64,000 bases of DNA from a virus. The position numbers and the translations under genes are program-made. The notes beneath the pieces were generated by a model that worked only from the letters and a program-made list of their open reading frames with translations, was not told the DNA's origin and ran no database searches. This document shows, one piece after another, positions 293 through 8,620 of this stretch (position 1 is its first letter; each line of letters opens with the position of its first letter). The stretch is taken from IMG/VR virus record IMGVR_UViG_3300045988_162215, one strand, 5' to 3'.

Positions 293-307
293 TATTTAAT
301 GCTCCTT

Positions 308-571
308 TCAATTATCTGTTATGAGATTATCTTCTTCGATATAAAAATCTCCATCAAAAAAATCATTGAATTTGTTAATATTCCATGCCTTAATTTCTTC
401 TGGCTTGATTTCTAAAGCGTAAAGAGGGCGACTGTAATATTCTTCTCTGTCCCAAATTTCAAAATCTTCTGTTAACCACTTATTATCAATAAGAAATTGA
501 ACTGCGCTTTCGTAACTATCTGCTACTCCAAGTACGCCATGATTATCTTCATGAATAATATAAATTATCAT
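308..571 (-). CDS. hypothetical early protein (87 aa), paralog of 3548..3808
   Basis: Internal ATG (MIIYIIHEDNHG) with SD gaaagtgaggt; the track's longer ORF start would overlap promoter 597..625; shares ADSYE(N/S)A(I/V)Q..ID..WLT(D/E)D.E.W motif with ORF 3548..3808. Confidence 0.6.
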   Translation of the reverse strand: MIIYIIHEDNHGVLGVADSYESAVQFLIDNKWLTEDFEIWDREEYYSRPLYALEIKPEEIKAWNINKFNDFFDGDFYIEEDNLITDN

Positions 572-596
572 TTTGTTTACCTCACTTTCTATATCT

Positions 597-625
597 ATTA
601 TACCATAGGGTTGACTACTTGTCAA
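597..625 (-). promoter_or_regulatory. sigma70 consensus promoter (TTGACA-17-TATAAT); -35 lies inside palindrome GGGTTGAC..GTCAACCC
   Basis: Reverse complement gggTTGACAagtagtcaaccctatggTATAAT. Confidence 0.7.
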
Positions 626-848
626 CCCTATTTTTCAAACTAGGGTGGACTCTTCCAAACTGCTCAATCATGCGCTGGCGCATAGGCGAAGCCGCAATCA
701 GAGTCTTTGTTGCAATCTCAGGGTTTACAAGAATCGCTCTGTATTCTCCATGAATATCTTGTGCAGTTCTCTGTGCATGTTCAAGGGTTTTACGCTTTGC
801 AAATCCTACGCGCCCTGGCTTTGTTACCTTATAAATAACTTCTCTCAT
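615..848 (-). CDS. hypothetical early protein (77 aa, basic)
   Basis: ATG (MREVIYKV) preceded by agagaggtaa; the track's longer N-terminal extension is rejected because it overlaps the upstream small ORF in another frame. Confidence 0.5.
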   Translation of the reverse strand: MREVIYKVTKPGRVGFAKRKTLEHAQRTAQDIHGEYRAILVNPEIATKTLIAASPMRQRMIEQFGRVHPSLKNRVDK

Positions 849-865
849 ATTTATTACCTCTCTTT

Positions 866-1036
866 CTAATGCTTTCCAATAATTATTGCAATGATAAGGA
901 TTACAAGTGAAATACCCAATGGAATCCACAAAGGGGCAAACACCCAAATCCATGATATTGAAATTACTTTTACCAACTTCAAAACCAAAAGAATAATAAA
1001 CAACAAACCGCTAAAACTAATTCCACCTTTTTCCAT
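866..1036 (-). CDS. small membrane protein (56 aa, 2 predicted TM)
   Basis: ATG at 1036 with SD aaagaggtaatg; hydrophobic translation MEKGGISFSGLLFIILLVLKLVKVISISWIWVFAPLWIPLGISLVILIIAIIIGKH; downstream of promoter 1071..1099. Confidence 0.45.
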   Translation of the reverse strand: MEKGGISFSGLLFIILLVLKLVKVISISWIWVFAPLWIPLGISLVILIIAIIIGKH

Positions 1037-1070
1037 AATCATTACCTCTTTCTTTCTTTATTATATATTT

Positions 1071-1099
1071 ATTATAGCATTGTTTTTACTACTTGTCAA
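1071..1099 (-). promoter_or_regulatory. sigma70 consensus promoter
   Basis: Reverse complement TTGACAagtagtaaaaacaatgcTATAAT. Confidence 0.7.
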
Positions 1100-1114
1100 T
1101 ACTTTTTTTGAAAA

Positions 1115-1303
1115 TTACTCAATAATTTCTTCGGAAAAACTTATCCAGTTATCATACTCTTTGACAATATCCCAAGTTATTCCTTTATCTTCATACTCGA
1201 AAAGTCCACCACAACAACCGCAAATAACATTACCGCTATCTGTTAAAATTCCTCCCATGTAGTGGGTTGGCTCTTCTAATTCAATAAACTTAACCTGTTT
1301 CAT
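1115..1303 (-). CDS. hypothetical Cys-rich early protein (62 aa)
   Basis: ATG (MKQVKF) with SD aaggag 8 nt upstream; the track start is GTG; motif ICGCCGG. Confidence 0.55.
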   Translation of the reverse strand: MKQVKFIELEEPTHYMGGILTDSGNVICGCCGGLFEYEDKGITWDIVKEYDNWISFSEEIIE

Positions 1304-1333
1304 TTTTATCACTCCTTTTTTATTTCTATATTT

Positions 1334-1362
1334 ATTATAACATATCTTCTATTGTTTGTCAA
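1334..1362 (-). promoter_or_regulatory. sigma70 consensus promoter
   Basis: Reverse complement TTGACAaacaatagaagatatgtTATAAT. Confidence 0.7.
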
Positions 1363-1505
1363 TAGTAATTTTTCAATTCTTTTCTCATTCTTTCAGCATT
1401 TCGCCCTTTTTTCTTATATCTTGCGGATTCCTGTATTCCGTATCCGGTCTGAAAAGGATTGTACTTCGGCATAAGCTGAGGCTGTTTTTCAATCTTAATT
1501 TTCAT
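1359..1505 (-). CDS. hypothetical basic small protein (48 aa)
   Basis: ATG 3 nt after the stop of the upstream ORF (translational coupling), SD aaggggg; stop TGA lies inside the TTGACA of promoter 1334..1362. Confidence 0.35.
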   Translation of the reverse strand: MKIKIEKQPQLMPKYNPFQTGYGIQESARYKKKGRNAERMRKELKNYY

Positions 1506-1507
1506 TT

Positions 1508-6625: not shown

Positions 6626-6654
6626 TTGACAAACTACGCATAGTATGGTATAAT
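6626..6654 (+). promoter_or_regulatory. plus-strand sigma70 promoter E
   Basis: cTTGACAaactacgcatagtatgGTATAAT. Confidence 0.7.
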
Positions 6655-6660
6655 GAATCT

Positions 6661-6790
6661 GAGATATAATGGGCGGGTGTATCTCGGGATGAGCCAGAGT
6701 GAGTTAGTCTAGCCTAACTTTCCTCGACAATTCCCTCTCCAAAAGTTATTTTGATTTCAAAAGACGGAATTTGTAAAAATCGTTGAGGTT
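6661..6790 (+). ncRNA. candidate non-coding transcript E, convergent with the Thg1-like gene
   Basis: Strong promoter; no ORF longer than 7 codons; local hairpins gagaua...uaucuc and guuag...cuaac. Confidence 0.4.
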
Positions 6791-6794
6791 AATA

Positions 6795-7679
6795 TTATTC
6801 CTCCTCAATAAAAATTAAATCTTCAATATACTTTCTACCTTCTCCTTTAAATATAGGAATTTCTTTATCTATAACCCAAGCTCTTTCTAATTTAGATGTA
6901 TCTCTAAGTCGTACTGTAGGTACAACTGTCTTTTTTCCACTAGGAAAAACAATTTGTTCTTTTTTTACAGTAATAACATTTTTTACACAACAAGAGCCTC
7001 TCTGACATTCTAAAGGAAGGCTATCCCAATCAATGCCTTTTTCTTTAAGCATTTCTTTTATATTCGCGCAAGACTTGCCTTGTAGCTCCTTATGGCTAAA
7101 GTTTGCTTGCCCAACTGCCTGAACTGAATTCCGCATAGCATCCAGCTGCCGCCAATAAATCAAATTAGCTACTTCTTCTTTTGGTATATTAAAACATCTT
7201 GCGTCAAACATTGCGCCTTTATCCATAGAACTACAATAAATTTTATATAAGTCAAATGGCATAGTACATTTTTTAGGAATATCATACCTATGAGCATAAT
7301 TATATGATACATTTTTTTCAAAAAATTTATTAAATGCTATTGTAGCCATACTTGCAGCAATACTACATACTTTCTGCACGTCATAATCAAACCACGCGGT
7401 GCTGGTTAAATTTTTATAATCCACTAATATAAGAGTAATTTCATCTGACTGAGTATATCCAAAAACACAACCTTGAATATTCTCACAAAGATACTGCATA
7501 GTTTCTTGCATTGACTTCATCAATATCTCATCAAAAGGTTTTTGAAACCCTTTTGTAAATGTATGAAAAGCGCGGCCGTCTATTCTAATGGCAACAGGAC
7601 ATCTGTGCATAAGGTGGATTTTAGGCGCGCTTTCATAAAAAGTTTTCATTCTAGTTCCTAAATCATCATGTACTGGCAT
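6795..7679 (-). CDS. Thg1-like protein (tRNA-His guanylyltransferase family 3'-5' nucleotidyltransferase)
   Basis: Translation carries hallmark Thg1 motifs: AIRIDGRAFHTF (cf. VVRLDGRNFHRF), QKPFD (cf. AKPND), GYTQSDEITLIL (catalytic SDE), YWRQLD (cf. SWRQAD). SD agagaggtacacatatATG. Confidence 0.75.
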   Translation of the reverse strand: MPVHDDLGTRMKTFYESAPKIHLMHRCPVAIRIDGRAFHTFTKGFQKPFDEILMKSMQETMQYLCENIQGCVFGYTQSDEITLILVDYKNLTSTAWFDYDVQKVCSIAASMATIAFNKFFEKNVSYNYAHRYDIPKKCTMPFDLYKIYCSSMDKGAMFDARCFNIPKEEVANLIYWRQLDAMRNSVQAVGQANFSHKELQGKSCANIKEMLKEKGIDWDSLPLECQRGSCCVKNVITVKKEQIVFPSGKKTVVPTVRLRDTSKLERAWVIDKEIPIFKGEGRKYIEDLIFIEEE

Positions 7680-7715
7680 ATATGTGTACCTCTCTTTCCT
7701 TACTTTTATATTCTT

Positions 7716-8087
7716 TTAACCAATTGTTAAAATTGCTGGATTTACAACACCATCGCCATCATAATTGTATTCCTTATTGTGCCACTTTCTAAGATATTCT
7801 CCATACTTCCAACACTGTGAAAGAATACTAACTGCACATCCATACATATATCCTGTAATGCCCTCAGTATCAGCTTCATGGCTTAACTTATCAGCATTAT
7901 CAACAATAACTTTCATAATATCTTCTGTAGAAGATTCAATCTTGTTCTCTAACATTTCTGCCCATCTTTCAGCATATGTAAAACAAGCTCTACCATAACC
8001 GTCACTATTCTTATTATACCAATCCTTGTATTCTTTTTCGTGTCCTTCTAAAATTTTCATGCGGCAATCGCGCTTGATGGCTGCCAC
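7716..8087 (-). CDS. hypothetical protein (123 aa); start uncertain (GTG 8087 or ATG 8060)
   Basis: ORF track; same operon, immediately upstream of the Thg1-like gene. Confidence 0.5.
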   Translation of the reverse strand: MAAIKRDCRMKILEGHEKEYKDWYNKNSDGYGRACFTYAERWAEMLENKIESSTEDIMKVIVDNADKLSHEADTEGITGYMYGCAVSILSQCWKYGEYLRKWHNKEYNYDGDGVVNPAILTIG

Positions 8088-8096
8088 TAAGACAGC

Positions 8097-8219
8097 CTAG
8101 CGCACTCCTTTCTTATCTTTTTTATAACCGAAATATTTTTCTCCACATCTATCTAAATCATGCCCTCCCCATATGGCTTGATGAATACCTTTCTTAATTA
8201 TTGTACTTGGTTTAGGCAT
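8097..8219 (-). CDS. hypothetical mini-protein (40 aa)
   Basis: ATG overlapping the end of ORF 8240..8524; weak SD. Confidence 0.25.
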   Translation of the reverse strand: MPKPSTIIKKGIHQAIWGGHDLDRCGEKYFGYKKDKKGVR

Positions 8220-8239
8220 GAAATTCTTTCTTAATCTCA

Positions 8240-8524
8240 TTAGAAGTCCTCCATTCTTGTCCATGTTATTAAAAGGTATTCTACATAAAAAGCTCTTTCA
8301 CATTTTTCAACCTCAAAACCTCGTTCTTCATACATCTTTACAATTTTATCTACAAAATTTGAATTAACAAAAGGTTCTGATAAAGATACTTCTATATAAC
8401 TTTTACCATGCGCGGCATTGTACTTTATTTCTTTGTCTATAATTTTAATATACTTCTTTTGCTGTCTAAGAAATTTCTTTTTAGTACGTTTTTGTATAAG
8501 TGCTATTTTGTTAATATCAACCAT
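8240..8524 (-). CDS. hypothetical basic protein (94 aa)
   Basis: ORF track; first gene of the minus operon leading to the Thg1-like gene. Confidence 0.5.
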   Translation of the reverse strand: MVDINKIALIQKRTKKKFLRQQKKYIKIIDKEIKYNAAHGKSYIEVSLSEPFVNSNFVDKIVKMYEERGFEVEKCERAFYVEYLLITWTRMEDF

Positions 8525-8554
8525 TTTTCTACCTCTATTCTATTTACTATAATT

Positions 8555-8584
8555 ATTATATCATAAAATTTTTAATAATTCCAA
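8555..8584 (-). promoter_or_regulatory. candidate promoter of the minus operon ending in the Thg1-like gene (TTGGAA-18-TATAAT), divergent from the late promoter
   Basis: Reverse complement TTGGAAttattaaaaattttatgaTATAAT. Confidence 0.35.
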
Positions 8585-8591
8585 TTAAATA

Positions 8592-8620
8592 TTGACAAGG
8601 CTAAAAAATTTTGGTATAAT
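8592..8620 (+). promoter_or_regulatory. sigma70 consensus promoter at the head of the structural (plus-strand) module
   Basis: TTGACAaggctaaaaaattttggTATAAT. Confidence 0.7.

Follow-up and report, generated by a model that had tools for sequence, protein, structure and literature searches.

The stretch of viral DNA considered here, 64,000 nt of IMG/VR record IMGVR_UViG_3300045988_162215 (referred to below as the window), raises the question of what a phage gains from a long series of promoters that match the host consensus exactly, most of them placed in front of very small genes. The original prediction for positions 300..8600 was of an early host-takeover region in which about 25 small genes each stand under a near-perfect promoter. 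Analysis of the region and its relatives gives a probability of about 0.72 that positions 1..8600 are the first 8.6 kb, counted from a sigma-like gene, of a ~15-kb array of early accessory genes for host takeover and counter-defence. On entry of the DNA, unmodified host sigma-A RNA polymerase would be drawn to the array promoters, out-competing those of the host, and the outcome would be a burst of small proteins acting on host processes and host immunity, of which a Tad4 protein is the one identifiable example. Beyond what had been predicted, the region holds five antisense promoters and about five promoters that drive non-coding elements, and the array continues past the start of the window.

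The promoter array

An exact promoter is defined here as TTGACA-N17-TATAAT unless an 18-nt spacer (N18) is stated. The N17 form occurs 22 times in the window against 0.06 expected (100 shuffles), and 17 of these promoters are on the minus strand, all within 72..6513. With the 18-nt spacer there are four promoters (0.05 expected), each of them on the plus strand and inside the array region. Two further minus-strand promoters have one mismatch (3521..3493, TACAAT; 2276..2248, TATACT), and three match the consensus at 10 of 12 positions (beginning at 8584, 4674 and 3256). With at most one mismatch there are 19 minus-strand promoters in 1..8600 and 18 in 300..8600; the array is therefore real, but the 'at least 20' originally counted was slightly high. 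The spacing was originally put at 250–400 bp; the intervals measured run from 75 to 881 bp, with a median of ~280 bp. A TG extension is present on 14 of the 19 best promoters (at most one mismatch), an A-rich tract lies upstream of most, and promoter plus leader (~68 nt) recurs as a repeated unit. A consensus scan of 1..10000 found 76 promoter-like sites against 46 expected, with nearly all of the surplus in the exact class, and the density of exact promoters is ~20-fold greater inside the array than in the rest of the window. Between 6514 and 8600 no exact minus-strand promoter is found, and the four genes of that interval share a single 10/12 promoter, which contradicts the claim that each gene has a promoter of its own. 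The GC skew switches at ~8.6 kb and ~56 kb, in step with the switch in gene strand.

Behind these promoters lie 27 minus-strand open reading frames (ORFs) of 23–294 aa in ~17 units, each ORF having a Shine–Dalgarno (SD) sequence 3–13 nt ahead of its start codon, which was the criterion for inclusion. They comprise 25 small ORFs, Tad4 and a Thg1-like protein, in agreement with the expected number of small genes with strong SDs, and 15 of the 27 are shorter than 60 aa, as had been anticipated for many of them. Sense units begin with a purine-rich leader and a strong SD followed by one to four small ORFs. Four tight junctions (8264/8240, 5469/5455, 3047/3043 and 1508/1505) are consistent with the translational coupling that had been proposed. 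The statement that each promoter is followed by one to three tiny ORFs applies to most of them but fails for five (P3521, P3373, P2351, P2276 and P100), which lead into non-coding elements.

A human-gut contig (ENA ERZ919625; locus L248, 143,455 bp) is identical to the window over 10.3 kb and reveals how far the array extends. It runs 6.7 kb past window position 1 and measures ~15 kb in all, with 34 exact promoters in the sense direction and a further two convergent promoter pairs. The array lies in the middle of this contig, which appears permuted relative to the window. At L248 12494-12712, within the array, a tRNA-Trp(CCA) and a second Rfam tRNA match of 137 nt, perhaps carrying an insertion or an intron, are found behind a TTGACA-17-TAAAAT promoter.

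The array was also surveyed across its family, in 80 IMG/VR loci anchored on the sigma-like gene (L047-L126) together with the window. Nearly all 80 loci show the array laid out divergently from the sigma-like gene, and no relative examined has this 361-aa gene in any other orientation to the array. In total 309 exact sense promoters are followed by an SD and an ORF, while on the opposite strand 109 exact promoters are without an ORF and 45 have one. The same layout is seen in a cultured phage, VRE9_2 of Enterococcus, where ~20 such promoters accompany small genes and two antisense promoters come with GC hairpins. A literature search found no transcriptomics of the Enterococcus relatives. The sigma-like gene falls into more than 6,600 metagenome clusters, so the array is probably among the commonest early-gene architectures of the human gut virome. 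Its dozens of exact-consensus promoters with matched leaders are possible genetic parts for use in Firmicutes, and it provides a test case for how far a genome tolerates such promoters.

Protein content and cassette turnover

The ORF 8087..7716 is a member of the Pfam Tad4 family (PF25186; 126.3 bits against a cut-off of 25, 9e-37, profile positions 1-111 of 113) and a predicted inhibitor of type I Thoeris. Tad4 has been named as a phage Thoeris anti-defence protein (bioRxiv 10.1101/2025.06.06.658234), and the match implies that part at least of the array cargo is anti-defence. Next to it, the ORF 7679..6795 matches Pfam Thg1 (PF04446; 103.4 bits against a cut-off of 29.2, 1.2e-29) and PHROG 4717, tRNA-His guanylyltransferase (2.7e-82). 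Searches of 20 small ORFs against Pfam and PHROGs gave no family, bar one weak PHROG of unknown function, and an NCBIfam search was empty. The same Pfam and PHROGs searches found no homology of any array protein to named host-shutoff proteins, including SPO1 gp37-gp60, and comparing the region by megablast with 50,697 phage records returned nothing. The suggestion that the small proteins are candidates for host shutoff or anti-defence is supported by the Tad4 match but finds no echo in Pfam or PHROGs for those 20 ORFs.

Conservation of the small ORFs could be followed in two close relatives, IMG/VR contigs labelled L001/L047 and L002/L048. Sixteen of the 27 ORFs are conserved in both; about 10 occur in this genome alone, among them Tad4, which is missing from the relatives. 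Pooled over 13 conserved small ORFs, the ratio of non-synonymous to synonymous differences (pN/pS) is 0.18 with pS ~0.25, which indicates purifying selection at the protein level. Lack of conservation had been named in advance as one of the results that would count against the prediction; the ORFs are conserved and under selection. The predicted paralogue pair 571..308 and 3548..3808 was confirmed, with 40% identity, and the family of 571..308 comprises 36 clusters, all metagenomic. Structure prediction, which had been proposed for each small protein, was applied to this 87-aa paralogue and gave a confident AlphaFold2 model (predicted local distance difference test score, pLDDT, 92.3), but no significant fold match was found for it in the PDB or BFVD. 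On the basis of the pN/pS and of the paralogue model, the small ORFs look like real genes.

At the DNA level the window and its close relatives align as a mosaic of blocks of 81–97% identity with breaks at unit boundaries. The repeated promoter and leader frame each unit, close relatives are distinguished by the gain or loss of whole units, and 10 of 27 ORFs are genome-specific; we infer that the array serves as a hypervariable store of cassettes carrying takeover and counter-defence genes. With its small orphan proteins beside Tad4, such a store would be a place to seek anti-defence and takeover factors directed against Clostridia and enterococci.

Stop-codon usage in recoded relatives

Evidence on timing comes from relatives in which TAG is recoded. 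In L093, L103, L108, L110, L117, L118, L120, L122 and L124-L126, in-frame TAG codons occur in the sigma-like gene, the terminase gene and neighbouring genes (positions 10001 onward). In ten recoded loci the long-frame coverage of the adjacent late block rises from 0.52–0.73 to 0.95–0.99 when TAG is read through, and the block contains 0.7–1.1 in-frame TAG per 100 codons. The arrays of these ten loci are very different. TAG is the first stop in only one of 61 promoter-proximal ORFs (median 82 codons, ~5000 codons), where the density of the late genes would predict ~40 in-frame TAGs, and it serves as the stop of 2% of array ORFs against 23% in 21 non-recoded relatives. Being nearly TAG-free, the array genes are readable under both codes. 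Recoded stops have been reported as restricted to late genes (PMC10607447), and the avoidance of TAG in the array is, as indirect evidence, what one would expect if its genes are early. The arrays of the recoded relatives examined yielded no suppressor tRNA within 10 kb. The window genome itself is not recoded, as its long ORFs are intact under genetic code 11. With TAG-free arrays beside TAG-recoded late genes in the relatives, this lineage allows a direct test of the idea that recoding serves to time late translation.

A module of operator, antisense promoter and GC hairpin

Five exact promoters are antisense to the array on the plus strand (beginning at 9, 2184, 4743, 5717 and 6626), and no SD-led ORF lies behind any of them. 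Each is directed towards the terminator of a sense gene that converges on it, and the predicted RNAs are ~60–175 nt long. A reading of these promoters as parts of type I toxin–antitoxin systems was rejected because the converging genes are not the hydrophobic ones.

Three of the antisense promoters belong to a module that recurs throughout the family. In its full form an operator block, TTGCACAA-ATTTYGGGAT-N-TTGTGCAA, starts 46–48 nt before the antisense -35 element, and beyond the operator a sense promoter usually faces away. A GC hairpin begins 7–8 nt past the -10 element in most promoter-bearing copies, that is, at about +1. Its consensus is tGAAAATT-CG-GCGCGCnn-(CGACCnn)-nnGCGCGC-CG-CCAAAA, in which the stems vary and covary but conservation is seen in the 7-nt loop (CGACCnn) and in the flanks (GAAATT..., ...CCAAAA). 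Facing exact promoters flank every GC hairpin of this genome, with 33–34 bp between their -10 elements.

In the first module (2119..2351) the minus-strand promoters 2351..2323 (exact, without an ORF) and 2276..2248 (TATACT) face the exact plus-strand promoter 2184..2213 (N18), with an imperfect GC hairpin at 2218..2244 and the operator core ATTTCGGGAT at 2140..2149. Three perfect 9-mer DnaA boxes (TTATCCACA at 2119..2127 and 2131..2139; TGTGGATAA at 2157..2165) form an inverted repeat with 16-bp arms around ATTTCGGGAT, in place of the family operator arms TTGCACAA and TTGTGCAA, and are kept in the two close relatives, where the module is 97–99% identical. This hairpin copy is weak (z ~0) and falls under the covariance-model threshold. 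The second module (4693..4893, plus strand) has the operator elements TTGCACAA at 4693..4700, ATTTCGGGAT at 4700..4709 and TTGTGCAA at 4727..4734, followed by an exact promoter at 4743..4772 (N18). Its predicted RNA (~4779..4893) stops at a two-way terminator and is without the GC hairpin; the module is 95–100% identical in the close relatives. The third module (9..145) has an exact plus-strand promoter at 9..38 (N18) facing the exact minus-strand promoter 100..72. The GC hairpin between them (43..69; CGGCGCGC-11 nt-GCGCGCCG) has a z of -2.3 and a covariance-model match at 35..75 (28 bits, E 1e-3), and a plus-strand RNA of ~45..145 is predicted to end at the terminator 113..143. It is 96–97% identical in the close relatives.

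A perfect stem of 7 bp or more starts 7–9 nt past the -10 element at 64 of 134 unique exact plus-strand promoters, whereas the mean longest stem in shuffles is 4.1 bp. A covariance model built from five hairpin copies was searched against both strands of 981 kb and gave 99 matches, all on the antisense strand and all inside arrays. In the alignment, which is fitted to the model, pairing holds in 93% of cells against 71% when shuffled, double-sided changes number 158 against 45, and compensation is seen in nine of ten pairs, with slid controls at 17–59%. RNAalifold on a MAFFT alignment of the hairpins found no structure, the rows being out of register. Among 96 unique copies, 48 have an antisense promoter, 11 a facing sense promoter and ~43 neither. 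Many of the promoter-less copies look like the module minus its -10 element and spacer, and in the sense direction read as a hairpin followed by AGUUUUUG. A scan of the whole-genome collection with an operator 17-mer gave mostly chance matches, complete modules being found only on phage-like contigs of metagenome-assembled genomes, so that no host could be assigned from it, and a literature search on the operator words returned primer sequences only. Rfam gave no gathering-level match in the 64 kb and, for the hairpin RNAs, the antisense RNAs and the GC-hairpin module, no meaningful match in 1..9000 even with E allowed up to 5.

We favour a role for the module as an operon-end insulator combined with a transcription-interference device. 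Its parts would be a back-up hairpin, an opposing promoter of maximal affinity with a GC-rich start, and a putative regulator-binding site; polymerase held at the GC-rich start region could act as a roadblock or as a source of interference. The module may also be the source of an antisense RNA with a 5' hairpin that limits early transcription or later shuts it off. Other possible functions are a short stable antisense RNA or an origin-like element. Taken as a whole (operator, exact antisense promoter, GC hairpin at ~+1, at times with an exact sense promoter facing it), it is tentatively proposed to be a previously undescribed phage device that times or insulates early transcription in a very abundant family of phages of gut Clostridia and of Enterococcus; possible modes of action are that of a polymerase trap or roadblock, antisense shut-off and a PR'-like late switch. 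The module is experimentally tractable, as cultured Enterococcus relatives exist.

A simpler view would make the GC hairpin just a second GC-rich intrinsic terminator behind early operons and the antisense promoter incidental. Indeed, 26 of 51 promoter-bearing copies sit a median of 14 nt beyond a sense-oriented terminator and only five have a U-tailed terminator for the antisense RNA, while the ~43 copies that lack both promoters include many with the sense-direction hairpin and AGUUUUUG tail. This would leave the fixed -10-to-stem spacing and the fixed position of the operator without a role, and would not explain why loop and flanks are conserved while stems covary. The tails also fit poorly: the antisense tail CCAAAA is not a U-tract, and AAUUUCC, the sense tail of the common form (AGUUUUUG being that of promoter-less copies), is a poor one. 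The terminator explanation is held to be unlikely.

A step further down in probability, and clearly improbable, is that the antisense promoters serve as late switches like those of lambda (PR'/Q) or HK022 (put). As strong constitutive promoters they would make short RNAs until an early phage factor, bound at the operator or hairpin, renders polymerase resistant to termination, and read-back would then silence the array and reach the sigma-like and structural genes. All 99 copies are aimed at the sigma-like and structural block and the operator stands at a fixed distance; the orientation is, however, no independent argument, since antisense to the array is the direction of the late genes. Plus-strand terminators are embedded in the sense promoters at 597-630, 1719-1738 and 4312-4335, and the 45-kb late block is promoter-poor. 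Against this, the sigma-like gene has an exact promoter of its own, distal copies would have to be read across up to 13 kb of convergent units, and the Rfam searches detected no Q-, N- or put-like sequence.

Three further identities for the hairpin were rejected. A CRISPR-repeat mimic or RNA anti-CRISPR does not fit because the stems differ among copies, even in one genome, and covary; Chi sites do not fit as there is no constant 7-mer; and integron attC-like cassette sites do not fit as there are only 1–8 hairpins per ~25 or more genes, each tied to a promoter.

Other sequence elements are seen in several relatives. In L053 (5593 and 6979), L055, L058 (294 and 1048), L071 and L084, CGAACGTACGTTCG or a close variant lies directly past the antisense -10 element; it equals the Firmicute LexA (Cheo) box consensus CGAAC-N4-GTTCG. 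Palindromes of the form TTGTGAAATATTTCACAA, which resemble the Rex operator consensus, are found at ~5650 in L067 and at 8900-9900 in L127, the VRE9_2 locus; they lie near module operators and also occur in VRE9_2 in the 1.5 kb of repeat-rich non-coding DNA that separates its array from its sigma-like gene.

Is the array an early takeover region?

The architecture and the TAG pattern together lend partial support to the interpretation of the array as an early takeover region. Several observations weigh against it. The TAG evidence comes from relatives at ~50% identity and not from this genome. Exact N17 promoters are also found beyond the array, at 13134 (before the portal gene), 24308 (plus strand, at the start of ORF 24308..24907) and 56310-56338 (minus strand, before a replication-side gene); as exact sigma-A promoters thus occur in structural and replication regions too, a perfect promoter is by itself no mark of an early gene. 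The small proteins except Tad4 are without a known family, so the case for host shutoff is made by the architecture alone. Finally, wobble counts in the GC hairpin (18 GU against 29 AC) do not identify the functional strand.

The array might instead be mainly a sink that titrates host RNA polymerase holoenzyme, with some promoters (those with a GC-rich start or facing one another 33–34 bp apart) acting as traps and the ORFs secondary. Thirty-four exact promoters in ~15 kb, at least five promoters without an ORF behind, and hairpins that start at about +1 are in keeping with this, and two polymerases should not fit together on facing -10 elements so close to each other. A pure sink would nevertheless have no need of ORFs under purifying selection with strong SDs, Tad4 among them. 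It is therefore considered very unlikely as the main function, though titration and an early takeover array are not mutually exclusive. The least probable explanation, that the array is not early and forms a constitutive or middle-class accessory (moron-like) region whose promoters look like the host consensus because the phage uses host sigma-A throughout, could draw on the promoters at 13134, 24308 and 56310 and on the unverified status of the sigma factor that would define a later class, but is opposed by TAG avoidance beside heavy TAG next door, which separates the two blocks temporally or translationally, by the promoter density, and by an orientation divergent from the structural block that is kept in dozens of relatives.

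Comparison with known systems

SPO1's host-takeover module consists of ~25 mostly small genes in many short operons whose promoters and ribosome-binding sites are like those of genes expressed at very high levels, with early transcription by host sigma-A (PMC6873191). The present array is similar in being a dense cluster of small genes (27 ORFs in ~17 units) with near-consensus sigma-A promoters and strong SDs, on a scale of 12–15 kb. It differs in having no detectable protein homology to SPO1 and in belonging to a siphovirus-type lineage with a ~2900-aa tape measure and a DnaE-type polymerase. Exact 12/12 promoters in series, exact promoters on the opposite strand and the operator–hairpin module are further differences. 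The SPO1 module is in the terminal redundancy; the present array may or may not share such a location, being mid-contig in L248, a contig that appears permuted, while several relatives have contigs that break just upstream of the sigma-like gene. To our knowledge the operator–hairpin module has not been described for SPO1. The original comparison with SPO1-type host takeover therefore stands for the architecture, and gains from the TAG avoidance of relatives, but not at the level of homology to host-shutoff proteins. Our verdict, reached from sequence comparison, is that the array appears to be a new variant of the SPO1-type early module to which a conserved module of operator, antisense promoter and GC hairpin (99 copies, absent from Rfam) has been added.

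The purine-rich double-SD leaders of the array recall the ribosome-binding stabilizer of SP82 early mRNA, where strong ribosome-binding sites stabilize the message (PMC7509114). The pre-early (first-step-transfer) region of T5 likewise has small early genes behind strong host-type promoters, encoding host shutoff and anti-restriction functions. Repeats, palindromes and DnaA boxes lie near the injection-stop signal in T5, and here three perfect DnaA boxes adjoin a palindromic GC hairpin. There is, however, no homology, the host is Gram-positive, and the DnaA boxes stand in for the arms of an operator that recurs and do not mark a unique stop site. Anti-defence islands and anti-CRISPR loci with Aca-type operators share with the array small orphan genes (here beside Tad4), strong promoters, inverted-repeat operators and fast turnover of cassettes. 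Unlike them, the array has no identified helix–turn–helix Aca-like gene, its operator is tied to the antisense promoter and not to coding promoters, and its scale is 15 kb. As in the recoded gut phages of the phAss-1 group, relatives recode TAG in sigma-like and structural genes and have TAG-poor arrays, whereas the window genome is not recoded.

Other antisense and non-coding elements

Non-coding elements are overall 94–100% identical across genomes in which synonymous divergence is ~25%. The antisense unit 6626..6812 (plus strand) has an exact promoter at 6626..6654 and a predicted non-coding RNA of ~6661..6812 that runs into a hairpin (6783..6808) at the end of the Thg1-like gene; its core is 98–100% identical in the close relatives. 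The unit 5717..5815 (plus strand) has an exact promoter at 5717..5746 (N18) and a predicted RNA of ~5753..5815, which shares CAGACCAAGTGTTCGAT (repeat family D9) with the RNA starting at 4779, and is 94–95% identical.

On the minus strand, the promoter 3521..3493 (TTGACA-17-TACAAT) leads into a unit (3395..3521) predicted to give a long hairpin RNA rich in G.U pairs, with a 55-nt core at 3460..3406 (z -2.4). The hairpin region 3406..3460 is 100% identical over 92 nt in the window and both close relatives, where synonymous sites differ by ~25%. The exact promoter 3373..3345 precedes a tRNA-like minihelix (3282..3330, minus strand) with an acceptor-like stem GGGATA/TATCCC and a T-arm AAGAG-TTCGATT-CTCTT. 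Two C-to-T changes in its 3' acceptor strand keep G.U pairing, and the copy in L048 (~4500-4600, minus strand) is fuller, at 68 nt. Neither ARAGORN nor Rfam RF00005 called the minihelix as a tRNA in the window or the close relatives; only the acceptor-like stem and T-arm remain. The Thg1-like gene, of a type concerned with 5'-end tRNA repair, is 3.5 kb from the minihelix.

Organization of the units

The 17 units are described from high to low coordinates, all on the minus strand. Unit 1 (6795..8584) has a TG-extended 10/12 promoter (8584..8555, TTGGAA-18-TATAAT) and the ORFs 8524..8240 (94 aa), 8264..8097 (55 aa), 8087..7716 (Tad4, 123 aa) and 7679..6795 (Thg1-like, 294 aa). Unit 2 (6162..6513) consists of an exact promoter (6513..6485), a leader with the AGCCAAAAGGCT hairpin, the ORF 6434..6198 (78 aa) and a terminator hairpin (6187..6162); the protein has 96% identity in the close relatives and a pN/pS of 0.04–0.08. 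In unit 3 (5789..6088) an exact promoter (6088..6060) precedes the ORF 6005..5814 (63 aa) and a terminator (5815..5789). Unit 4 (5216..5660) has a weak or unclear promoter near 5650 and a leader paralogous to 4664..4626 (repeat family D15). Of its ORFs, 5455..5216 (79 aa, hydrophobic) has a pN/pS of 0.10–0.13 and 5570..5469 (33 aa), at 0.35–0.74, is the least certain ORF of the array.

Unit 5 (4868..5207) has an exact promoter (5207..5179), the acidic ORF 5130..4891 (79 aa), which has no homologue in the close relatives and is a window-specific cassette, and a two-way terminator (4893..4868). Unit 6 (4348..4674) has both a 10/12 promoter (4674..4646) and an exact one (4585..4557) before the window-specific ORF 4524..4348 (58 aa). 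The exact promoter of unit 7 (4061..4330), at 4330..4302, has its -35 element inside the hairpin GGGGTTGA..TCAACCCC and is followed by two overlapping window-specific ORFs, 4268..4197 (23 aa) and 4216..4061 (51 aa). Unit 8 (3548..4053; exact promoter 4053..4025) encodes 3976..3863 (37 aa) and 3808..3548 (86 aa), the paralogue of 571..308. Unit 9 (2909..3256; 10/12 promoter 3256..3229) has the closely spaced ORFs 3208..3047 (53 aa) and 3043..2909 (44 aa, hydrophobic).

Exact promoters stand before all of the remaining units. Unit 10 (2620..2912; promoter 2912..2884) has the window-specific ORF 2850..2620 (76 aa), and unit 11 (2365..2634; promoter 2634..2606) the window-specific ORF 2576..2388 (62 aa) and a terminator at ~2395..2365. 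Unit 12 (1937..2112; promoter 2112..2084) encodes an acidic, Cys-rich, window-specific protein (2050..1937, 37 aa), unit 13 (1738..1933; promoter 1933..1905) has the ORF 1881..1738 (47 aa), and unit 14 (1359..1733; promoter 1733..1705) has the closely spaced ORFs 1672..1508 (54 aa) and 1505..1359 (48 aa). The window-specific ORF 1303..1115 (62 aa) of unit 15 (1115..1362; promoter 1362..1334) contains CxxC motifs. Unit 16 (615..1099; promoter 1099..1071) encodes a membrane-like protein (1036..866, 56 aa) and 848..615 (77 aa), with pN/pS of 0.04–0.13. In unit 17 (113..625) the -35 element of the promoter (625..597) is inside the hairpin GGGTTGAC..GTCAACCC; the ORFs are 571..308 (87 aa, of the paralogue family) and 292..128 (54 aa), and a two-way terminator lies at 143..113.

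Flanking genes and phage lineage

Outside the array, an exact plus-strand promoter (8592..8620) precedes the 361-aa sigma-like gene (8649..9734). The label 'sigma factor' comes from a single PHROG (5767), and every other test, Pfam and NCBIfam included, failed to back it. The contigs of the relatives L050, L051, L054, L083, L114, L115 and L119 begin or end 20–200 bp upstream of this gene, which points to a genome terminus or else to an assembly break that recurs at the edge of the hypervariable array.

By its portal, its terminase and a 2871-aa ORF the phage is related to gut siphoviruses of the phAss-1 type, to ~140-kb Enterococcus phages (VRE9, EF1) and to further large phages of Firmicutes. 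At 24993-40885 (plus strand) a giant ORF of 2871 aa is immediately followed by another of 2422 aa, the first being the size of the tape measure reported for phAss-1 relatives. The phAss-1 group has been assigned to Clostridia (Eubacteriales) in a paper that does not discuss promoters (PMC10607447). The phage is probably a large virulent siphovirus-type phage of gut Clostridia, the host being taken from family context only. In the few intergenic gaps of the structural block no late-promoter motif is visible by eye.

Structured sequences at promoters and leaders

Several sense promoters, those of units 7 and 17 among them, have the -35 hexamer inside a hairpin (597-630, 1719-1738 and 4312-4335, also 2606-2640 and 2884-2912), the hairpin sequence differing by promoter. 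Read on the plus strand, the same hairpins are terminators with a U-tract, the A-tract upstream of the promoter doubling as the U-tail for antisense transcripts. A small leader hairpin (AGCCAAAAGGCT on the sense strand) is found at 3991-4002, 5145-5156, 6021-6036 and 6449-6460 between two SD-like purine runs, so that these four leaders have the layout AAGGAAAGGA[hairpin]AAAGGTAAA. The sequence CTTTARCGCRCTAAAG, a 5-bp inverted repeat with a GC core, occurs three times in intergenic positions past terminators (4838-4853, 6131-6146 and 6569-6584), and the copy at 4838-4853 sits within the predicted RNA 4779..4893.

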